Shown here: positions 1 to 28,126 of the stretch, in pieces
How positions within the stretch are numbered: position 1 is the stretch's first letter
How the letters are laid out: each line of letters begins with the position of its first letter
Source: Elusimicrobiota bacterium
GTDB taxonomy: Bacteria; Elusimicrobiota; Elusimicrobia; UBA1565; UBA9628
DNA length: 64,000 nucleotides
Direction: 5' to 3'
Assembly (NCBI GenBank): GCA_016212855.1
Contig: JACRDP010000009.1
Coordinates: 89,275 to 153,274 of the forward strand
Translations under genes and position numbers: made by a program
The notes under the pieces: model-generated
The model's input: the letters and a program-made list of their open reading frames with translations, nothing else
Database searches by the model: none
Told to the model about the DNA's origin: nothing

Positions 1-375
1 TCTCAACGGCCCATACCGGCTCCTCCGGGAAGCGATCTGACCTCGATCAAAGTCATGGGATGTTTTTTGGCGAAGACTTTGGGCGCGAGTTATGTGCCCG
101 TGGCGTTGACGGCTTACCGATTGGAGACCGACTGGCCGATGATCCCCAATCCGCCTCCGCCGACGATTTCCCGCTCCCTCCCCAAGATTCTTCATGATCT
201 GGACGTCGAGGACGTTCTCGTTGACTTGACGATCTTCAACGCGCCTTCGGGAGGCCGCGATCAACGTTTTCAGGTGGATTTCCAGCTTCCCGATATTCGG
301 CCGGTGGATCACTTCCGCGCGCTGATTTTTGTGGATCACTCTCCTCCGGCACGGATGCTGAGGCGACGTTCCTGA
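1..375 (+). CDS. hypothetical protein, probably 5'-truncated by the window edge
   Basis: Track ORF 55..375. The same frame has no stop codon back to nt 1, so the gene may start upstream of the window. No motif recognised. Confidence 0.3.
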   Translation, partial: SQRPIPAPPGSDLTSIKVMGCFLAKTLGASYVPVALTAYRLETDWPMIPNPPPPTISRSLPKILHDLDVEDVLVDLTIFNAPSGGRDQRFQVDFQLPDIRPVDHFRALIFVDHSPPARMLRRRS

Positions 376-456
376 CGGACGCGCCGGCCGCCGCTTCAAT
401 TTAGCTTGAATGTCCCGAGTGGCGGAACTATAATACGCAAGTCTCAATGGAGGCCG

Positions 457-729
457 GTGAAATACAAGATCAAGGACTTGATCGTCTCCGTGTCAATTTT
501 ACCCCCCAAAGGCCGTTCAAAAAAGTACGTGCATTACCTCGCATGCGGCAGTTCATGCGGCAACACGTGCGACTGGAACCTGTCAGTGATAACGCGAAAT
601 CACGGAAGCGCCACCGAGGAGATGTCGTTCTATAGCGCGCTTGAGAAGCAGCTTGCCTCTCATCTGGCTCGGTTGAAGAAGAGCAACGTGACCCGCAAGA
701 AGCGGTTGAAGTTGCGCAAGAAATCGTGA
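457..729 (+). CDS. small Cys/Ser/Thr-rich peptide, candidate lanthipeptide-type RiPP precursor (paralog 1, 90 aa)
   Basis: Track ORF 406..729 (TTG). I prefer the in-frame GTG at 457 (GGAGG at 449-453) because it reproduces the N-terminus (V/M)KYKIKDL of the paralog at 758. Middle segment is ..HYLACGSSCGNTCDW... The C-terminal block TRNHGSATEEMSFYSALEKQLASHLARLKK plus a K/R tail is shared with paralog 2. Lies directly upstream of the kinase-LanC gene. Confidence 0.55.
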   Translation: MKYKIKDLIVSVSILPPKGRSKKYVHYLACGSSCGNTCDWNLSVITRNHGSATEEMSFYSALEKQLASHLARLKKSNVTRKKRLKLRKKS

Positions 730-757
730 GGCCCGGCTCCAATAGTCGAGGGGACAA

Positions 758-1093
758 ATGAAATATAAGATCAAAGACTTAATGGTGTCGATGGTGGCTT
801 GGCCTTCCCAGGGCTCCAAGGGTCCGATAAAACACTACATGCAGTACCTCGGAAAAGGCTGCGATGGGCCCTGTACCTGCTACAGTGTGACCTGCGGCAA
901 CACTTGTGGCAACACCTGCGACTGGACTATTTCGCACGCGACGAGAAACCACGTCAGCGCCACGGAAGAAATGTCGTTTTATAGCCAGCTCGAAAGGCAG
1001 TTGACGTCTCATCTGGCTCAACTGAAGAAGCGCAGAGCCTCCCTCAAGGGCCGCATCAAATCGTCGAACAAGCCGAAGCGCGCTAAACGTTAG
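758..1093 (+). CDS. small Cys/Ser/Thr-rich peptide, candidate lanthipeptide-type RiPP precursor (paralog 2, 111 aa)
   Basis: ATG preceded by GAGGGG. MKYKIKDLMVS... Middle segment GKGCDGPCTCYSVTCGNTCGNTCDW has 6 Cys. Conserved C-terminal block TRNHVSATEEMSFYSQLERQLTSHLAQLKK plus a basic tail. Paralogous to 457..729. Confidence 0.6.
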   Translation: MKYKIKDLMVSMVAWPSQGSKGPIKHYMQYLGKGCDGPCTCYSVTCGNTCGNTCDWTISHATRNHVSATEEMSFYSQLERQLTSHLAQLKKRRASLKGRIKSSNKPKRAKR

Positions 1094-1097
1094 CGGC

Positions 1098-2222
1098 TTG
1101 AGATCGCGCCTGGCTGGATCGCGGGGAATCGCTTCCCTGTCATTCCGTTTGAGTTCCGCAGTCCGGCTCGAGAAGATCCCGCGATCCGCTAAGGCCCTCT
1201 CTGCCAACCATGCTCGTGACGAGATGATCGGTCTAGTCGTGCGGGCTGACAATGCCCTGCACGTTCCGGTAACGGCGATTAATCTCGAGGTCTGGAATCT
1301 CCTGACCGGCCTTCGGGGCGCCCCGGAGGCGGATGCGGATACCGAGCGCCGCGAGATATTGCGCCGGCTCGTCATGGGTGATATTGTCGAGGTCCTCATC
1401 GACGGGGTGTGGCAGAGCGGCCCGGCGCCGCTCGCGAAAGCGCGCGATCCGCATGCTGCTGATGATGGGATGGAGCTTCGGCGACTCTCCGCCGAGGCGA
1501 TCATGTTGGCATACAAATCTCCGCGTGAGCACTCGTGGGAGCTTCTCAACCTGCTCTACTATTTCAACCGCGCACCTTTGTCACCGCGTTTGAAGCGGTC
1601 GTTGCCTGACGAGGCTGCTTGCCTACGATTTCTGGGTATCGCCAACGGCTCTTGCCGAATAGGCGGAAGGCGCTTCGACTTGCCTTTGCGACTTTCGCAC
1701 AACGGACGGGGATGGCGGACCTGGCGCCGCCAAGGAAATGGGCCGACTCGGCAAGTGATGGATGCAAGGCATAAGGTCTATATCAGTCCTCAGCTAGAGC
1801 AATTGCCGATGGTCTTTCGAACGACTTGTGCGCTCGCGTTTGAATCGAGCGCGGCATCCTTAAAAATCGGCGCGAGCCTGACCGAACTGCTTCGGCCGGA
1901 CAAGATGGTCGTCTATTTCGCGCGAGCGAGCGACGCCCAGGCTTTCGCACGTCGAGTCCTCACGAAAATGCCGCATGTCCGGGCGCAAGGCGTCCCGTTT
2001 TCCTGGCAATTCGGATCGACAGCCCTCGTGTCTCTCGGCGTCGATCCACTTGGGGCATCCGGCCATAGCTGGCGCACGTGGGTTTGCGAGGCTATCTCCA
2101 CCGCGATTTTGAGCGCTCGTCGTAGGGCCTCCCTCGATCCTCAGGCTTTCGTGTCGCGGCGCCTCGAGGCGATCGGTGTCGATACCGAGAGATGGATGCC
2201 GAAGACCTCGTGCCGGCTCTGA
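1098..2222 (+). CDS. HopA1-effector-like protein, candidate phospho-Ser/Thr lyase partner of the adjacent kinase-cyclase
   Basis: 374-aa ORF starting 4 nt after peptide 2. The start is uncertain (TTG 1098 or ATG 1224). The C-terminal half (HKVYISPQ...SLKIGASLTELLRPDKMVVYFARASDAQAF) resembles, from memory, HopA1-family proteins found in class V lanthipeptide clusters. No search was run. Confidence 0.4.
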   Translation: MRSRLAGSRGIASLSFRLSSAVRLEKIPRSAKALSANHARDEMIGLVVRADNALHVPVTAINLEVWNLLTGLRGAPEADADTERREILRRLVMGDIVEVLIDGVWQSGPAPLAKARDPHAADDGMELRRLSAEAIMLAYKSPREHSWELLNLLYYFNRAPLSPRLKRSLPDEAACLRFLGIANGSCRIGGRRFDLPLRLSHNGRGWRTWRRQGNGPTRQVMDARHKVYISPQLEQLPMVFRTTCALAFESSAASLKIGASLTELLRPDKMVVYFARASDAQAFARRVLTKMPHVRAQGVPFSWQFGSTALVSLGVDPLGASGHSWRTWVCEAISTAILSARRRASLDPQAFVSRRLEAIGVDTERWMPKTSCRL

Positions 2223-4638
2223 TAGCTTGAAAAATTTTCTCGATATTGAAATTGATCTAAGTCGGGATCGTTGGCTTCTCCCAAAAGATCTCCTAGTGAC
2301 GCCGATCGAACGTTTCGGCGATAAGTTCGTTCGCAAAGCACTTGGTCGGCCGTTAAGGCGAGGCGAGGGCGCGTTCGTGGCCAGCCGTGCCTTGACGCGC
2401 TCCGATCCGAAGCTGCTCGGCATCGAAGCGCGCGCCTTACTGGAGCGATTCCGCACACCCAGAACTCTCCTGCAGGCCGTGCTGGATCTCGCGGCGGAAC
2501 GGGGGGCGAGCCCCCAAGAGGTACTTAAGGACATCGCCGAGCCGGTCCGGCGTTTTATCGGTGATGGCTTCCTCATAAAATCCGGGCCGCAGAACTCCCT
2601 AACAGGCGGCGTTATCGTCCAGACGCTGCGCGTGGGCCAGCTAGTTCGCGGTCGCCGGGTCATGCGTTGCGTACGTCCGATGATCGATGTCGAGCTTTAT
2701 CTCATCGAAGGTTCCGGGAACCGGCGATGCGCGCTCAAATTGCTTCGGCCACAGTTCCATTCACCGAAGGCAGGGATGTTCGCGAACGAACAGCTGCGGA
2801 GGGAGCGGGCTGCCTTGGAGCAACTCGCTGGGACCGCGGCCGTGCGGCTGGTCGATGCTGGTGATTGGAAGCGCCGGCCGTTCGTGGCAGTCGAGTGGAT
2901 CGATGGTCCGAGCGTCGAGTTGTCGGCCCGAAGGATTCGCACGAGCGGCGCTTCTCCGGTTTCGCGCCAATCTCAGCTTCTGCGGCTCGCCGACGACGCT
3001 TTGGCGGCGTTGGAGAGCATTCACGCGCGGGGCTATTTACACGGAGATATACATCCCCAGAACCTGATTCTCCAGGGGGACCGGGTCCGCGTCATCGATT
3101 TCGGTCTGGCCCGGCGTATAGACGATTTAAGCCGCCCTCCGGTAGTCGGCATGGCCGGGGTCCTCGAGTTCATGCCGCCCGAGGCCGCACGCGCGATGCT
3201 GGACGGCAAGGATTATTATAGACGCACCATTCGTAGCGAAGTGTACTCCGCGGGAGTACTGACTTTTTTCATCCTGACCGGCAAGCTGCCGCATAAACTG
3301 ACGGTACATAGGCGAAAGGCCATCATCGATCTCGCCTCATTCTTGCCGCTTGCCTTTCATCGCCCATTCATTCCGAAGGCAATCGAACAGGTGCTGCGAC
3401 GAGCTCTCGACAAGACTCCCCGGCGGCGCTTTCCGTCCCTTCGGTCCTTCCGCCAAGCCCTCGAACAAGCTACGGCGCCACAAACGTCGGCACCCGCAAT
3501 CAAAACCGGCTCTTTCGCGCACACCCGGAGGGACCTGGACATTATCAGGAGGAAGGTGGGCCTCTTTCTGGAAGGTGTTCGGAAATCCGATCATCGGTCG
3601 CTGTCGCAGTCACTTCGGCCGCCACGCGCCTCCGTCGGTTTTGGTGGCGGTGGCGTGGCTTACGCTCTGCTGCGCGGCTCCGAAGTCTTCGACGACCCGG
3701 GTTTGCTGACGGCGTCCATGAGTTGGATCGAGCAGTGCCAGGCTGGCCTGGATCTCCGATCCGGAATCTACTCGGCTCCCGCAGGTATGACGGCGAAGAC
3801 CATCAATCTCGGGTCTGTCCTTTTTTCAAGGACAGGGCTATCGGCCGTCGAGGTCTTGATCGCAGAAGCCTCAGACATGGCCTCTTCACGTGAACAGGCC
3901 CTGATGCGGGTGAGTTCGACGATTGAACCCGCTTTGCGGAGCTCATCAGACCTCTTTCTGGGGCTGCCAGGCTGGCTTGCTATGGCGACGATACTCGCCA
4001 AGCGCATGGAAGATCCGCGCGCGCTGTCGTGGGCCGGAATCGCGGGACAGACGCTGTTGGATCGCACTCGAACCGACGGCTATGGCGACAGCGGCCTAGG
4101 CCTGGCCCACGGAAGAAGCGGCGTGCTATTTTCACTCATCCAATGGGCCCGAACGGCAGGCGTTGAACTCCCACCGTCGGTCAAGAATGAGACTTTACGC
4201 ATCGCAGAACCGGTCTTGTCCGGCGCCGCACATCCCAGAGAGGCCGGCCCATGGTTTCGAGCGGAGCTGCGCGGGACTCTGTGCAACGGCCTACCGGGCC
4301 TAGCGCTTTTTCTTTCGCGCGCCTACGAGCACTACGGAGATGAAACGCTCTTGGCCGCGGCCCGAGCGGCGATTACGGCAAGCGGACCACATTCCGATCA
4401 CACAAACGTATGCTGTGGCATCGCCGGACGCGCCTACGCTTTGCTGTCCGTCGCCCGGGTGGATCCGAGCGGACCATGGCGCGACCTAGCGCTCAAGCTC
4501 TGCCTGCGTGCGCTCGAGAATCCCTACTCCCGCCCATGGCCCTACGGATTGCTAAAGGGAGCGCCGGGGATCGTCTGTCTTGCCCTGGACATGCTCGACA
4601 CCGATACGACACCTGCTTGCCCGTTCCTGGAAACGTAG
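2176..4638 (+). CDS. Ser/Thr protein kinase domain fused to a LanC-like cyclase domain (lanthipeptide-synthetase-like), with an extra ~130-aa N-terminal module
   Basis: Kinase motifs: CALKLL (Lys), YLHGDIHPQNLIL (catalytic loop), VIDFGLAR (DFG), MPPEAA (APE). LanC-like motifs: GLAHGRSGVLFSL, LCNGLPGLALFL, CCGIAGRAYALL, GLLKGAPGIVCLAL. The start is uncertain (2176, overlapping the upstream ORF by 47 nt, or in-frame TTG 2227). Confidence 0.8.
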   Translation: MSIPRDGCRRPRAGSDSLKNFLDIEIDLSRDRWLLPKDLLVTPIERFGDKFVRKALGRPLRRGEGAFVASRALTRSDPKLLGIEARALLERFRTPRTLLQAVLDLAAERGASPQEVLKDIAEPVRRFIGDGFLIKSGPQNSLTGGVIVQTLRVGQLVRGRRVMRCVRPMIDVELYLIEGSGNRRCALKLLRPQFHSPKAGMFANEQLRRERAALEQLAGTAAVRLVDAGDWKRRPFVAVEWIDGPSVELSARRIRTSGASPVSRQSQLLRLADDALAALESIHARGYLHGDIHPQNLILQGDRVRVIDFGLARRIDDLSRPPVVGMAGVLEFMPPEAARAMLDGKDYYRRTIRSEVYSAGVLTFFILTGKLPHKLTVHRRKAIIDLASFLPLAFHRPFIPKAIEQVLRRALDKTPRRRFPSLRSFRQALEQATAPQTSAPAIKTGSFAHTRRDLDIIRRKVGLFLEGVRKSDHRSLSQSLRPPRASVGFGGGGVAYALLRGSEVFDDPGLLTASMSWIEQCQAGLDLRSGIYSAPAGMTAKTINLGSVLFSRTGLSAVEVLIAEASDMASSREQALMRVSSTIEPALRSSSDLFLGLPGWLAMATILAKRMEDPRALSWAGIAGQTLLDRTRTDGYGDSGLGLAHGRSGVLFSLIQWARTAGVELPPSVKNETLRIAEPVLSGAAHPREAGPWFRAELRGTLCNGLPGLALFLSRAYEHYGDETLLAAARAAITASGPHSDHTNVCCGIAGRAYALLSVARVDPSGPWRDLALKLCLRALENPYSRPWPYGLLKGAPGIVCLALDMLDTDTTPACPFLET

Positions 4639-4957
4639 CGTCCCTAGGACCCGGTCCCGGAGACGGAATTTCTAGTGCGCTCCAACTAAGAGCAGCCTCA
4701 CCCAACCATCGTAGCCCGCCCCCGCAGGAGCCCACCATCGTCCCAGGGGCTCAATTTCCCTCAAACAACCGCACGCCGCCTCAAAAATCGTTCCGCCGGG
4801 CATAGTCCGTCCGGCCCTTTCATGCGGGCCACTCGCTTGGAAAGTCCTGCCTCCCTTCCCTGTCTCAGCGCGGGTCCTCCTGGCTTCTCAACTCCCCCCG
4901 CTCAGTGCTCCCGCTCATCCAGGATAACTGCTGTGTCCCGTTTAAGTTACACAAGCC

Positions 4958-6406
4958 CTAACGATTCAACGCCGGATTCAAACGCACGGCCTCGCGCATC
5001 TGCGCGAGGCCGTCGCTTTTATGGCCTTCGCGAACCAGGAGAAGGCCGAGGTTGTAGCGGGCGGACGCGAAGGACGGGTCGTTCGGCTTGAGCTCGACGG
5101 CCTCGCGAAATAAATAGATGGCGCGGGCCGGATCGCGCTGTGCGACGATGGACGCGAGGTTCACGCGCGCCTCGGCGTCGCGCGGTTCGAGACGCATCGC
5201 GGCTTCAAGGAACGGGACGGCGGCGGCGCCGCGGCCGGCGACGAGCAAGGCGACCGACAAATTCGAGTTAGGCAGATACGCGTCGGGCTGAATCTCGACG
5301 GCGCGGCTCCACAGCGAGACGTCGTCTTTCCAGAACGAGGATTGCCGGATCGTCGCGACGGACAGCGCGAGAGCCGCGCCGTAGAGGACCGCCAGCGATG
5401 TCTGTTTTTTTAGACGGTCCAAACCCAGGCCAAACAAGACGGCGAAGGGCAGGCACGCGAGATACGAATAACGATCCGCGGCGGCTTGGCGTCCGTTCTG
5501 AAGCAGGCCGGACACCGGCGCCAGCGCGATAAGATAAGAAAACCAAACGGGCACAGCCCAGGATCGTACGCGTTTGTGGAAACAGAGGACTGTGACGAGC
5601 TGGGCCAATAGGGCTCCGGGGTACGATTCTTGTCGTATTCCGTCGCCGTTCAAAGAGAGGGCGTAGTAAGGAGAAAGATTGATCGGCATGAGCGTCTTCG
5701 ACAAATAGAACCACGCCCCGTTTCCTGCGACGAGAATTCGATCGAAAAGCCCCAGGTCGACGGCATGCACGTCTCCGGTTGAGAAGCCGCCCAGGTTTTT
5801 ACACGCCGCGAAAAGGCCGACGACGGCGTGTGGAATCAACTGCTTGGCCGACTTTCGATCGAGCACGAATAGAAACGGCAAAACGGCGATGGCCGTGCCC
5901 TTGGACAGAACGGCGAACACGAACGACAGCAACGAAATGTGTTTTCTATTCTCGAGCCACGCCCAAACGGACAGCACTGCGAAGAACCCCGACAAGACGT
6001 CGCGCCGTTCCGTAATCCAGACGACGGATTCCACTCTTAACGGATGGAGAGCGAAGAATAATGCGGCGCCTGCGGCGCCGTAAACAGAAGAGAACGCGCG
6101 CCGGCACGTCAGAAAAACGAGCGCGGCGGTCAGTGAATGAAGCAAAACGTTCGTTCGACGGAATGCAGAGGCATCCAACCCCCAAAGACTATAATCGGCG
6201 CCCCAGGAAAACCACGACAACGGCTGCCACGGACCGTAATGGCGCGTGCTCCACATCCATTTAATATTTGCCCACGACATGCCGCGCCACTTGTCGTTGT
6301 TCAGAAGATTGGCCGCGTCGTCCCACTGAAGGAATTTGGCCGCCGGCGCGAAACTGAAGACGACGAAGACCGTCAGCGCGATGAACGCCGGCGCGTATTT
6401 TTTCAT
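4958..6406 (-). CDS. TMTC/PMT-like GT-C membrane glycosyltransferase with C-terminal TPR repeats
   Basis: Multi-pass hydrophobic N-terminal two thirds with HPLRVESVVWITERRDVL (DUF1736/TMTC-type motif). C-terminal TPR-like repeats (..AEARVNLASIVAQ.., ..ARYNLGLLLVREG..). ATGA overlap with the upstream gene. Confidence 0.6.
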   Translation of the reverse strand: MKKYAPAFIALTVFVVFSFAPAAKFLQWDDAANLLNNDKWRGMSWANIKWMWSTRHYGPWQPLSWFSWGADYSLWGLDASAFRRTNVLLHSLTAALVFLTCRRAFSSVYGAAGAALFFALHPLRVESVVWITERRDVLSGFFAVLSVWAWLENRKHISLLSFVFAVLSKGTAIAVLPFLFVLDRKSAKQLIPHAVVGLFAACKNLGGFSTGDVHAVDLGLFDRILVAGNGAWFYLSKTLMPINLSPYYALSLNGDGIRQESYPGALLAQLVTVLCFHKRVRSWAVPVWFSYLIALAPVSGLLQNGRQAAADRYSYLACLPFAVLFGLGLDRLKKQTSLAVLYGAALALSVATIRQSSFWKDDVSLWSRAVEIQPDAYLPNSNLSVALLVAGRGAAAVPFLEAAMRLEPRDAEARVNLASIVAQRDPARAIYLFREAVELKPNDPSFASARYNLGLLLVREGHKSDGLAQMREAVRLNPALNR

Positions 6407-25307: not shown

Positions 25308-28126
25308 GAGAGTACGGCGATCGTCTCTTTGAGGCGATCGCGGCGGGCCGCCGCGGCGTCGTGCTGCTCTTTGGCCTCGGCGACCTTTTCGGCGGGCGCG
25401 CTGGCGGCGGCGGATAGATTTTTCAGCTTCGCGGCGCATTTCTCGATATCGCCTTCGGCCTTCGCGAGATCCTTGGCCAGGCGCTCGCGCTCCTTGGCGA
25501 AGTCGATGACGCCGGCCAGCGGGATATGGAAGGTGACGCCGTCGGCGACCGCGGTGGCGCTTTGCGCGGGGCGGCCGCCGTTCATGGGCTCGAGGCTTTC
25601 GAGCTGGGCCAGGAGAAGCGCGTACGCGCGGTGCTTCCCGAGCAGGGCGGCGGCGAAGGGGCCCTCGGCCACGGCCTTGATCTTCAGCCCGGGCGGAACG
25701 TTCAGTTGCGAGCGCAGCGAGCGGATCGAGGTCACGGCGCCCATGACCAAGCTCATCTCCTTCTCAACCTCGGGATTCACCCGGCTGCCGTCGAGGACAG
25801 GGTAGCCGCCTCTGAGGATGAACTCGGCGGACTCGCCGGCGTACGCCTTGATCTCGGCGTACAACTCTTCGGTCACGAACGGCATGATCGGGTGCAAAGC
25901 CTTGAGCGAACCGGCCAGGATGTGGACGAGGATGGCCCGCACGGCGTCCTTGCTCTCCCCTTCGGCGCCGGTCAGGCGGCCTTTGGCGAGCTCGATGTAC
26001 CAGGCGCAGAACTCGTCCCACAGGAACACGTACAGCTCCTGCGCCGCGGCGGCGGGATCGTAAGCGTCGAGGCTCGCTTGAGCGTGGGACACGACCCGCT
26101 GATACCGGGACAGGATCCACCGGTCGGCGAATTCCAGATTTTTCGAGCCGAGCGAATAGACCGCGGGGGTCTCGGGCAGGTTCATGAGCACGAAGCGCGT
26201 CGAGTTCCAGAGCTTGTTGACGAAGTTGCGCGCGCCGACGACGGTCTGCTCGTCGAAGGCGATGTCCTTGCCCGGGTGGGCCTGCGCCATCAAGGCGAAG
26301 CGCAGGGCGTCGGTGCCGTGCTTCTCCATCATGACGAGCGGATCGATGACGTTGCCCAGCGACTTCGACATCTTCTTGCCGCTCTTGTCGCGCACGATGC
26401 CGTGGATGACGGCGTCGGGGAAGGCGGGCTTGTCCATGAAGGCGTGGCCCATCATCTGCATGCGGGCGACCCACAGATAGAGGATCTCGTAGCCGGTGAC
26501 GAGGGTCGAGGTCGGGTAGTAATAAGCAAGATCCTTGGTTTTCTCGGGCCAGCCGAACACGGCGAGCGGCCACAGCGCCGAGGAGAACCAAGTGTCGAGC
26601 ACGTCCGAATCTTGATACCAATGATTTTTCCCACATGTTTTACATGTATCTGGCTTAGTCTGACTAACCTTCAATCCCGGGAAACTAGCTATGGACTTTG
26701 CATCGACATCTTTACCCGCTTCGAATTCGAAGAATGGATTCAATGCGAGCAATTCGTCAAATGAAATTCCACCTTCAAGGATTGAGCCAGCTAAATATTG
26801 TTTTACCTGCATGCCAGCGTCTTTCCCGGATTTCAGCTGAACTTCTGTTCCAAGATATGCGATTGGATTTGTGCACGTCAGGCAATACCAAACCGGAATA
26901 CGATGTCCCCACCAAATTTGACGAGAAACGCACCAATCTTTGATGTTAACCAACCAATCACGATACGGCTTAACCCAACTAGTCGGATAAATTTTAAATT
27001 CACCGCTATCTAGGGCTTTAAGCGGTGCTTTGGCTAATTCAATCTGATTAACAAACCACTGGAACGAAAGTAAGGGCTCAATAATGGAGCTGCATCGATA
27101 ACAAATCTGTACTGCACTCTTATGATCTTCCTTCTTTCTTAGATATTTCTCCGACTCAAGATCCGCAATCACTTGATCGTGGGCCTTTTCTCTAGATAAA
27201 CCAGCATACTGGCCAGCCCAATCCGTCAATTTCCCGTCACGCCCTAGCACTTTGATTGCAGGCAATTTATGTCGCTGCCCGATTTCCCAGTCATTCTGAT
27301 CATGCGCGGGTGTAACTTTCAAACAGCCGGTACCGAATTCGAAGTCCACATAGGTATCTTCGATTATTGGAATCGAACGATTTGTGAACGGAATCAGCAC
27401 CCTTTTCCCAATCAAATGCGTCCACCGCTTATCCTTCGGGTTGATTGCGACGGCGGTGTCGCCGAACATCGTTATGGGACGCGTCGTCGCGACGACCGCG
27501 CCCTCGCCCCCGCCTTCGAGCGGATAATGGATGTGGTAAAGAGCGCCCTTCCGTTCTTCCCGTTCGACTTCGATGTCCGACAACGCCGTGCCGCATCGCA
27601 CGCACCAGTTCACGAGACGCTCGCCGCGGTAGATCAGCCCGCGCTCCCACAAGGTTTTGAAGGCGTGGAATACGGCCTTGCCGCGCTCCTCGTCCATCGT
27701 GAAGGCCTCGCGCTTCCAGTCGAGGGACGCGCCGAGACGATGCAATTGGCCCAGGATCGTCTTCTTGCAGTCGCGCGTCCAGACCTGCATGCGCTCGAGG
27801 AAGGCGTCGCGGCCCAACGCGTGACGGTCGATCTTCTCGGCCTTGAGCTGCTTCTCCATCACGTTCTGCGTGGCGATGCCGCCGTGGTCGCAGCCGGGCA
27901 CCCAGCAGGCTTCCTCGCCCTTCATGCGATGATGGCGGATGAACGCGTCCTGCAGGGAATTGTTGAGCGCGTGGCCGATGTGAAGGGCGCCCGTCACGTT
28001 CGGGGGCGGAATCACGATCGTGAACGGAGGCTTGGCGCCGGGTACGGAGCGAGACAGCTGAGCGGCGTCCCAGGACGCGAGGCGCTTCTCCTCGACCGGC
28101 TTGGGATCGTAAGCCTTCTCGAGCAT
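25304..28126 (-). CDS. valS: valine--tRNA ligase
   Basis: PPPNVTGALHIGHA (HIGH), KMSKS, DVLDTWFSS, C-terminal coiled coil. Contains an in-frame low-GC segment at about 26600-27450. Confidence 0.95.
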   Translation of the reverse strand: MLEKAYDPKPVEEKRLASWDAAQLSRSVPGAKPPFTIVIPPPNVTGALHIGHALNNSLQDAFIRHHRMKGEEACWVPGCDHGGIATQNVMEKQLKAEKIDRHALGRDAFLERMQVWTRDCKKTILGQLHRLGASLDWKREAFTMDEERGKAVFHAFKTLWERGLIYRGERLVNWCVRCGTALSDIEVEREERKGALYHIHYPLEGGGEGAVVATTRPITMFGDTAVAINPKDKRWTHLIGKRVLIPFTNRSIPIIEDTYVDFEFGTGCLKVTPAHDQNDWEIGQRHKLPAIKVLGRDGKLTDWAGQYAGLSREKAHDQVIADLESEKYLRKKEDHKSAVQICYRCSSIIEPLLSFQWFVNQIELAKAPLKALDSGEFKIYPTSWVKPYRDWLVNIKDWCVSRQIWWGHRIPVWYCLTCTNPIAYLGTEVQLKSGKDAGMQVKQYLAGSILEGGISFDELLALNPFFEFEAGKDVDAKSIASFPGLKVSQTKPDTCKTCGKNHWYQDSDVLDTWFSSALWPLAVFGWPEKTKDLAYYYPTSTLVTGYEILYLWVARMQMMGHAFMDKPAFPDAVIHGIVRDKSGKKMSKSLGNVIDPLVMMEKHGTDALRFALMAQAHPGKDIAFDEQTVVGARNFVNKLWNSTRFVLMNLPETPAVYSLGSKNLEFADRWILSRYQRVVSHAQASLDAYDPAAAAQELYVFLWDEFCAWYIELAKGRLTGAEGESKDAVRAILVHILAGSLKALHPIMPFVTEELYAEIKAYAGESAEFILRGGYPVLDGSRVNPEVEKEMSLVMGAVTSIRSLRSQLNVPPGLKIKAVAEGPFAAALLGKHRAYALLLAQLESLEPMNGGRPAQSATAVADGVTFHIPLAGVIDFAKERERLAKDLAKAEGDIEKCAAKLKNLSAAASAPAEKVAEAKEQHDAAAARRDRLKETIAVLS

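Follow-up and report, generated by a model that had tools for sequence, protein, structure and literature searches.

What is encoded by two small, tandemly arranged, Cys-bearing open reading frames (ORFs) that lie immediately ahead of genes for putative peptide-modifying enzymes? This question is raised by a stretch of 64,000 nt from an Elusimicrobiota bacterium (GenBank assembly GCA_016212855.1, contig JACRDP010000009.1, positions 89,275 to 153,274 of the forward strand), which we refer to in its entirety as the window; the source is a metagenome-assembled genome, and its NCBI annotation was used for comparison. An original prediction, made from the letters of the window, had described the two ORFs, here named pep1 and pep2, as paralogous peptides with conserved ends and a hypervariable Cys-rich middle, and had weighed two readings: precursors of an atypical lanthipeptide, or small metal- or nucleic acid-binding proteins. 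We favor the former and, with a probability of roughly 0.6, consider pep1 and pep2 to be tandem paralogous precursors, that is, the substrates, of a three-component lanthipeptide-type modification cassette that includes a stand-alone lyase and a kinase-cyclase fusion (the coordinates of all features are collected in Table 1).

The predicted pair of + strand ORFs is indeed present, with 54% identity between the encoded proteins (BLASTP, E = 1e-34) and 76% identity between the genes, the mismatches falling mostly at third codon positions. Nei-Gojobori analysis of the pair gave a pS of 0.64 and a pN of 0.24, corresponding to a dN/dS of ~0.2. From the protein alignment, this ratio and the third-position bias, we concluded that pep1 and pep2 are real coding genes under purifying selection that descend from an old tandem duplication. 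We also recovered each of the sequence blocks that had been listed for them, namely the N-terminal KYKIKDL(I/M)VS, the central CGNTCDW, the block TRNH(G/V)SATEEMSFYS(A/Q)LE(K/R)QL(A/T)SHLA(R/Q)LKK and the Lys/Arg-rich tails, along with the count of three Cys in one paralog and six in the other.

Both peptides belong to a family whose members carry the motif FKIKDLMVxVxP directly 3′ of the start codon (consensus FKIKDLMINVLPE), and this N-terminal block is the strongest signature of the family. When the 64-kb window was cut into 1298 six-frame segments and these were scored with a hidden Markov model (HMM) of the motif built without the window sequences, the N-termini of pep2 and pep1 were the best and second-best matches, respectively. 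A profile search of a set of 5.8 billion proteins yielded 65 clusters, among which every named one was a “hypothetical protein” and none had a Pfam domain; when the window peptides and 10 diverse relatives were scanned against Pfam and NCBIfam, nothing but sub-threshold coiled-coil noise was returned.

Membership in this family is strictly coupled to the presence of the enzyme pair. Using a degenerate-pattern scan derived from a 13-sequence sub-alignment of the lyase, and one genome per species, we identified genomes encoding a lyase relative in at least 235 species; the loci of 80 of these relatives were kept, and 86 loci (L numbers below) were examined in all. The kept loci derive in the majority from Acidobacteriota, and otherwise from Gemmatimonadota, Burkholderiaceae, Rhodocyclaceae, Actinomycetota, Chloroflexota, Bacteroidota, Eremiobacterota and Melainabacteria, as well as from Bacillus pfraonensis and B. 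mycoides. At essentially all 86 loci, a kinase-LanC homologue, including its N-terminal 170 residues, is encoded directly 3′ of the lyase on the same strand. Beside this lyase and kinase-LanC pair, at ~75 of the 86 loci, lie one or two small ORFs (60–260 aa) with the same three-part plan, usually immediately upstream of the lyase, more rarely downstream of the kinase-cyclase, so that the unusual layout noted in the window, a central variable Cys/Ser/Thr-rich segment between conserved ends, proved to be a recurrent one. In a six-frame translation of 927 kb, 63 of the 64 N-motif HMM hits scoring at least 8 bits shared the strand of the lyase and lay no more than 2.5 kb upstream of it, and the remaining one was a further precursor 3.8 kb upstream; for the C-terminal motif, 47 of 48 hits of at least 10 bits, all from loci other than the window, were likewise upstream on the lyase strand.

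The coupling also holds when approached from the peptide side. The original prediction had named homologues without modifying enzymes nearby as an observation that would count against it, and we found the opposite: all seven relatives detected by peptide sequence alone (P0002, P0097, P0100, P0033, P0046, P0062 and P0049) adjoin the enzymes. As far as each contig reaches, their neighbors are a protein without a Pfam match (258 aa in L001, ~385–405 aa in the others) and a Pkinase-LANC_like protein; the short contig L087 ends 26 codons into the gene that follows its 385-aa lyase-family protein. The Pfam-less neighbors in L001 and L087 were checked as members of the lyase family; the assignment of the other five relied on their size, their position and the absence of a Pfam match.

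Between the ends of the family members, behind a Gly/Ala-rich linker, lies a middle composed of 16% Cys, 13% Thr, 12% Gly and 9% Pro, which varies from 9 to 159 aa in length and from 2 to 35 in its number of Cys, with no conservation of Cys spacing. Tandem repeats make up 18 of the 74 cores (for example CYASGGG, CTGHQTHPQE, CTPSPPD and GPCSGPSSPT). Every core contains Ser/Thr, and in 58 of 62 cores the sum of Ser and Thr is at least the number of Cys minus one; relative to Cys, these residues are over-represented at positions +1 and +3 (1.7-fold) and +4 (2.3-fold), and under-represented at +2. The C-terminal element is an amphipathic helix with the consensus (E/D)DLAALKAQLxxALxEVE, which is often extended to a two-helix, coiled-coil-like region, as indicated by composition and sub-threshold coiled-coil Pfam hits; 15 of 76 members carry a second conserved helix motif, PQT..E.E.LE.KL. 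The number of residues following the last Cys has a median of 51 (range 1–97) and reaches at least 60 in 32 of 74 precursors, while the shortest members (L011, L022, L069 and L076) retain only ~15 helix residues. Members share on average 46% pairwise identity over the N motif, 34% over the C-terminal helix and 19% over the gapped-aligned middle.

Some ORFs depart from this plan at one of its parts. Downstream of the kinase-cyclase in L085 (9258–9500, +) is an ORF that has the family N motif (MSFQIRNLMIQ) and a C-terminal helix (LGLLRQQLRRTLRQ) and contains no Cys; this ORF may represent a degenerate copy, or else serve as a decoy or regulator. In L031 (4870–5334) and L083 (4989–5450), Arg-rich, out-of-frame-looking text takes the place of the C-terminal helix, probably as the result of a frameshift or an assembly error.

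The window peptides themselves fall into a small, basic-tailed subfamily. Among 5.8 billion clustered proteins they have a single close relative, P0002, which is 66% identical to pep2, retains its Cys pattern and is encoded on a contig of 3.6 kb (L001) whose genes are ordered as in the window; when the three close sequences were used as a profile in an exhaustive search, four further representatives were added (P0097, P0098, P0100 and P0103). The subfamily combines the family N motif with a conserved T-(R/K)-x-H...Y..LEKKL..ALAE helix and, behind it, a Lys/Arg tail, and comparison of the middle with the ends, which had been suggested as a check, showed that P0002, P0097, P0098, P0100 and P0103 keep the ends while their middles contain 3–14 Cys. 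The description of the middle as hypervariable thus holds at the level of the subfamily and the family, but not between pep1 and pep2, which differ there mainly by one 13-aa indel (GKGCDGPCTCYSV), nor for P0002. In the window peptides, 52 and 57 residues follow the last Cys. Their helix (Y-S-x-L-E-K/R-Q-L-x-S-H-L-A) has in common with the family helix only the hydrophobic pattern Phi-x-x-L-x-x-Q/K-L-x-x-x-L, and we do not claim homology between the two at the sequence level. Between core and helix, a T-(R/K)-x-H motif is found in the window (592–612 and 941–961) and in P0097, P0098 and P0103, in the forms TRNH, TRGH, THGH, TREH and TKGH; the motif may mark a processing site or serve as a contact for a metal or an enzyme.

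Downstream of pep2 is a gene whose product gave no match in Pfam and NCBIfam scans, Pfam HopA1 included. Its homologues, typically ~390–400 aa long, are scarcely more recognizable: two of 23 match Pfam HopA1 weakly, without reaching the threshold of that model, and one is labeled HopA1 family by the Joint Genome Institute (JGI). A PDB sequence search with the lyase-family profile gave nothing useful. The fold was identified from an AlphaFold2 model built with 13 homologues (mean predicted local distance difference test score, pLDDT, of 77), which Foldseek matched to HopA1 (4rsx, 2.4e-8) and to LxmY of the lexapeptide dehydratase complex (9dk1_B, 2.5e-7), with further matches to SpvC/OspF (~1e-4) and to the lyase domain of ThurKC. 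Across the family (LKIG...LRPDK..VYF) the Lys and Arg are invariant and the Tyr is at least 90% conserved. The putative catalytic residues of the window lyase, K256, R266 and Y273 (nt 1863–1865, 1893–1895 and 1914–1916), have a K-10-R-7-Y spacing identical to that of K219, R229 and Y236 in CaoY, which were found by mutagenesis to be required for elimination (PMC9486802).

The 820-aa fusion encoded next combines a Hanks-type kinase with a LanC-like cyclase. Its best NCBIfam match is LanL (E = 1.6e-45, restricted to profile positions 215–801 of 851), where it attains 155.8 bits and the cutoff is 650; for NCBIfam LanKC the score is 96 bits and the cutoff 575. Its Pfam match to APH is weak and partial, and no OspF-type lyase domain was found in it by Pfam and NCBIfam scans. 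Aligning 54 homologues showed conservation of the kinase Lys, of the HGDxHPxN catalytic loop and of DFG, as well as of the LanC motifs GxAHG, CNG and CCG; the acid/base His and three Cys ligands are retained in all 54. CCG denotes a zinc site of three Cys that characterizes promiscuous cyclases of the ProcM type (PMC8524650). The window kinase reads VIDFGLA, and so has DFG where LanKC and LanL kinases conserve DFE (PMC9828337). A kinase, a phospho-Ser/Thr lyase and a zinc-type LanC cyclase are thus encoded together, which covers all the chemistry needed to form lanthionine. When aligned with hhalign, the N-terminal domains of the lyase and the fusion show a weak relationship (probability 60%, E = 9e-5).

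On this basis we propose the following route. The central Cys/Ser/Thr-rich segment would be the core, whose Ser/Thr would be phosphorylated by the kinase domain of the fusion; the separate LxmY/HopA1-type lyase would then eliminate the phosphate to give dehydroalanine or dehydrobutyrine, and the zinc-dependent LanC domain, with its three-Cys CCG site, would add Cys thiols to form (methyl)lanthionine rings. In RiPPs, peptides that are made on the ribosome and modified after translation, the conserved segments of a precursor serve for recognition and the variable ones become the product, and it is because of this general rule that we read the conserved ends as handling elements that would lie outside the product. 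The N-terminal FKIKDLMV-type motif may act as a short leader, and the C-terminal amphipathic helix may provide a second, follower-side element for docking or processing. The related N-terminal domains of both enzymes would be the candidate docking modules, a conjectured role, and the kinase N-lobe, which binds the leader in class III/IV enzymes (PMC9828337), is a further candidate reader.

Several observations weigh against this proposal. For every member of the family, we infer rather than observe the modification, the residues modified, the pairing of peptide ends with enzyme domains and the mature product. The family C-motif HMM gives ~0 bits on the window peptides, and the two-helix C-terminal regions of many members exceed the size needed for docking. 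As for the enzyme N-domains, no Pfam model matched them above threshold, with one weak match to DUF7782, and the profile of the kinase-cyclase N-domain had no PDB sequence match. The N-domain of the window lyase (1098–1470) is shortened (pLDDT 40–67), versus ~130 aa in most homologues, and the 258-aa lyase of L001 has none at all, so that in these two cases the lyase may rely on the kinase-cyclase for substrate delivery. At some loci the precursor is downstream of the enzymes or was not found, and clustering of the neighbors across the 86 loci revealed no conserved protease, exporter/transporter or tailoring gene. Finally, the AlphaFold2 model of pep2, which shows a helix at residues 68–103 (pLDDT 66–74) and no fold for residues 1–66 (pLDDT <50), was built on an alignment of three sequences and is of low confidence (mean pLDDT 48); it offers weak evidence against a folded Cys domain.

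The absence of a conserved protease or exporter would also fit the likeliest of the alternatives, a leader-core precursor in which the N motif alone guides the enzymes. Here the C-terminal helix and tail would stay in the mature product, a small modified protein in which the helix, the coiled-coil region and the Lys/Arg tail, still joined to the thioether-stapled middle, supply the function, for example in oligomerization, membrane or polyanion binding, or surface assembly. Members with 60–97 residues after the last Cys are numerous, the second helix motif and the coiled-coil-like composition (even with Pfam coiled-coil hits below threshold) fit such a role, basic C-termini are common, and in the window the helix has diverged from that of the family while the N motif was kept. 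Against this, the first helix keeps DLxxLKxQLxxxLxxVE across phyla beside a hypervariable middle, as expected of an element read by an enzyme, the shortest members retain no more than ~15 residues of helix, and a gene for a subtilisin-type protease does lie near one locus (L086). We regard helix retention as rather unlikely, though well worth keeping in mind, and treat the recognition role of the helix as what the pattern of conservation suggests.

The two remaining explanations concern the core. If the peptides were not substrates, they could be Cys-rich metal- or nucleic acid-binding proteins (metallothionein-like, a zinc chaperone, a regulator or an inhibitor) that are merely co-transcribed with the enzymes, as the original prediction had allowed. 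The high Cys content and the Lys/Arg-rich tail of the window subfamily, the zinc requirement of the LanC domain and the Cys-less relative in L085, which illustrates that the ends can persist without a core, would suit such proteins, but the conserved metal-binding Cys site of a folded protein is not what we see: the 2–35 Cys are variably spaced in cores that are often repeat arrays, Ser/Thr occur in every core and are co-enriched at fixed offsets from Cys, the Cys region has no predicted fold, and no Pfam or NCBIfam metal- or DNA-binding family was matched. The small ORF is, moreover, the sole candidate substrate gene in a kinase/lyase/LanC cassette, and we judge a non-substrate role to be very improbable. 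Nearly as improbable, in our estimation, is that the peptides are substrates of another chemistry, carrying labionin or His-to-butyrine links, or dehydro or phospho residues with the Cys held in disulfides or metal sites. Some cores do have His/Thr-rich repeats such as CTGHQTHPQE, LanKC-like enzymes are reported to form His-butyrine links (noursin-type products; PMC10206099), and the Ser/Thr are mostly C-terminal to Cys, opposite to the usual ring direction. The acid/base His and complete three-Cys zinc site of all 54 cyclase homologues, however, constitute an apparatus for thiolate addition, and in nearly all cores Ser plus Thr reach at least the Cys count minus one. Lanthionine formation on precursors with two conserved ends is thus the reading that we carry forward.

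Table 1. Features of the pep1-pep2 cassette; nucleotide positions are those of the window.
Feature	Position	Strand	Description
Sigma-70-like promoter candidate	406-434	+	TTGAAT-17 nt-TATAAT, 10/12, upstream of pep1; consensus match only
pep1, precursor paralog 1	457-729	+	90 aa, GTG start, 3 Cys; NCBI P0003 (HY923_02600)
pep1 N-terminal family motif (KYKIKDLIVSVS)	460-495	+	N-motif HMM built without window sequences: 10.7 bits, E = 0.024
pep1 Cys/Ser/Thr core (CGSSCGNTC)	544-570	+	pep1-pep2 and subfamily alignments
pep1 TRNH block, amphipathic helix (Y..LEKQL...LA) and Lys/Arg tail	592-726	+	Subfamily alignment; helix by analogy with pep2 model
pep2, precursor paralog 2	758-1093	+	111 aa, ATG start, 6 Cys; NCBI P0001 (HY923_02605)
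pep2 N-terminal family motif (KYKIKDLMVSMV)	761-796	+	N-motif HMM built without window sequences: 13.9 bits, E = 0.0022
pep2 Cys/Thr-rich core (CDGPCTCYSVTCGNTCGNTC) with CGNT repeat	860-919	+	pep1-pep2 and close-relative alignments
pep2 TRNH block, predicted helix (aa 68-103) and Lys/Arg tail	941-1090	+	AlphaFold2 model; subfamily conservation
Phospho-Ser/Thr lyase, LxmY/HopA1 fold	1224-2222	+	332 aa per NCBI; ORF open from 1098; fold by AlphaFold2 and Foldseek
Kinase-cyclase fusion	2176-4638	+	820 aa; Pkinase 4e-19, LANC_like 6e-19 (Pfam)
Kinase-cyclase N-terminal domain	2176-2690	+	~170 aa; part of the 820-aa fusion
Ser/Thr kinase domain (Hanks-type)	2716-3501	+	Pfam Pkinase
LanC-like cyclase domain	3643-4614	+	Pfam LANC_like
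CCG zinc-ligand motif	4411-4419	+	aa 746-748; 54-sequence alignment

Around the peptide genes, a GGAGG sequence at 449–453 precedes the pep1 start codon, and promoter-like sites of the kind listed in Table 1 number three in 5.2 kb, versus 1.3 expected. We also considered a longer pep1 ORF starting at TTG-406 and rejected it as unlikely because this TTG coincides with the −35 hexamer of the promoter-like site; NCBI also annotates the 90-aa product from GTG-457. Folding of the spacer between pep2 and the lyase gene (1090–1225) gave an RNA z-score of −1.25, which provides no evidence of an attenuator there, and the terminator-like hairpin at 1121–1140 is weak. The G+C content of the cassette region (window positions 1–6400) is 53–62%, with the peptide genes at ~53%, versus 64–70% for most of the window, and this composition may reflect horizontal acquisition; a second block of low G+C (55.5%) is located at 26001–28000.

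Individual loci have neighbors of their own. In L086 (1–10957) the order is lyase, kinase-cyclase, precursor (P0097), and a Peptidase_S8 (subtilisin-type) gene ~1.1 kb further downstream is the sole hint of a dedicated maturation protease; an ECF sigma factor is encoded upstream and a radical SAM gene lies nearby. L088 (3939–10094) has a methyltransferase gene upstream of the precursor, a luciferase-like monooxygenase-family gene abutting the kinase-cyclase stop, and PqqD and FtsX genes on the opposite strand, which are possible tailoring and export genes of one lineage. Directly upstream of the lyase in L042 (~2879–4483) and L060 (~3732–5447) is a gene resembling flavin-dependent tryptophan halogenases, and no precursor ORF was recognized in either locus. 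The gene next upstream of the precursor in loci of the Thermoanaerobaculia type (L002, 4541–7213; L030, 1828–5328) encodes a large Ser/Thr kinase in fusion with PD40/Tricorn beta-propeller repeats; second kinase hits were likewise obtained in L019, L047, L061 and L079, and the PD40/Tricorn kinase is a lineage-specific fourth gene. In L072 (6352–6597, +), a conventional-looking lanthipeptide precursor, with a leader followed by a Thr/Ser/Cys-rich C-terminal core ending in TCATCLGPSCAHPGPSINPTLNSLCC, is encoded downstream of the kinase-cyclase. As no three-part precursor was found at this locus, some of the enzyme pairs may serve canonical substrates.

If our reading is correct, the cassette would represent a new lanthipeptide architecture that mixes features of class IV, class V and ProcM, together with a new precursor logic in which the core is displayed between a leader and a follower. 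It would also mark a blind spot of genome mining, the rules of which seek a C-terminal core, a LanL or LanKC score or a Pfam HopA1 hit; the proteins described here fail all three, which is probably why they have remained “hypothetical” in at least 235 species. The extreme variability of the cores, in length, in repeat arrays and in Cys number, suggests a very tolerant modification system, and for the display of peptide libraries, a scaffold with two fixed ends would be appealing. Cultured carriers include Bacillus pfraonensis 70b (L039) and Microbacterium rhizomatis JCM 30598 (L063).

Among known systems, class IV (LanL enzymes such as VenL and SgbL) resembles the window cassette in the fusion of a Ser/Thr kinase to a zinc-type LanC, in the best NCBIfam match of the fusion protein, in a dehydration that would run via phosphorylation and then elimination, and in small Cys/Ser/Thr-rich substrate genes within the operon. 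LanL, however, is a single polypeptide with lyase, kinase and LanC domains, whereas the window fusion lacks the N-terminal OspF-type lyase domain, having in its first 170 residues an unrelated domain, and a gene of its own encodes the lyase. In the kinase, DFG stands in place of DFE, the zinc site is Cys/Cys/Cys (CCG) instead of Cys-Cys-His, and the precursor core is central instead of C-terminal. Class III (LanKC) cyclases lack zinc ligands, whereas the window LanC has all three Cys. With DFG and the CCG site, the kinase-cyclase is not a class III or IV enzyme minus one domain.

Class V (LxmK-LxmY, CaoK-CaoY and TsaC-TsaD) is similar in its separate HopA1-like lyase with the LxmY fold, in the spacing of the catalytic Lys, Arg and Tyr, and in adjacent or overlapping lyase and kinase genes, as expected for a complex. 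It differs in having an APH-family kinase and no LanC cyclase, whereas the window kinase is a Hanks-type Pkinase fused to LanC; the lyases of the window family have an extra N-terminal domain of ~130 aa and fall below Pfam HopA1 detection, and the precursors differ as well. Eyles et al. (2021) proposed HopA1-LanC gene clusters as uncharacterized lanthionine synthetases (PMC8153245), but those consist of a HopA1-LanC fusion and a separate APH phosphotransferase, unlike the kinase-LanC fusion and separate lyase seen here, and strings of the family N motif were not found in the three text-form supplementary files of that paper. With ProcM and the prochlorosins (class II), the window system has in common the CCG three-Cys site and the use of one enzyme set for precursors with conserved recognition parts and hypervariable cores, whereas ProcM has a LanM-type dehydration domain and acts on precursors with a long Nif11-type N-terminal leader, a C-terminal core and no follower. 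Class VI, as described in a review, comprises a streptococcal LanKCb with a truncated lyase domain and miniature peptides (PMC12328550); by that description, the window system differs in its full, separate lyase and its large precursors.

On the precursor side, canonical LanA peptides likewise hold Cys and Ser/Thr in the core and are encoded beside their synthetase, but their core ends the peptide, unlike in the window family with its long extension past the last Cys. The leaders of class III/IV precursors contain a motif (M/L)xx(L/V)xxL, for example MLDLQGM in CurA, that is bound by the kinase N-lobe (PMC9828337). As a lead only, I-K-D-L-M-V of the family can be set against M-L-D-L-Q-G-M of CurA, both being short, hydrophobic and acidic with a D-L pair, and a conserved amphipathic helix occurs in the family precursors too; the family N motif, however, is at the very N-terminus, its alternating hydrophobic residues suggest a strand, and its helix is C-terminal to the core. 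A RiPP recognition element (RRE) of the PqqD-like type is a winged helix of three strands and three helices, and the enzyme N-domains gave no Pfam match other than the weak one to DUF7782. Recognition or follower sequences at the C-terminus are known from bottromycins, cyanobactins and amatoxins, which resemble the window family in the placement of a conserved element C-terminal to the core and differ from it in their unrelated enzyme chemistry. We know of no described lanthipeptide class with a follower.

Neither the cassette nor its precursors were described in the literature that we searched, which was limited to open-access sources, such that an earlier description elsewhere is possible, and judging from its sequences the enzyme arrangement appears to fit none of the described lanthipeptide classes. 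We tentatively suggest, at somewhat less than even odds, that it constitutes a further, undescribed class of lanthionine formation, in which a Hanks-type kinase-LanC(CCG) fusion and a LanY-type lyase acting in trans would be guided by related docking domains at their N-termini and would act on precursors that are recognized at both ends, by a strand-like tag at the N-terminus and a helix at the C-terminus, to yield large, multi-ring, often repeat-built “lanthi-proteins” with up to 35 Cys in Acidobacteriota, Gemmatimonadota, Chloroflexota, Actinomycetota, Bacillus and others. Compared with the systems above, the chemistry is known, and what is new is the architecture of the enzymes and the logic of the precursors.

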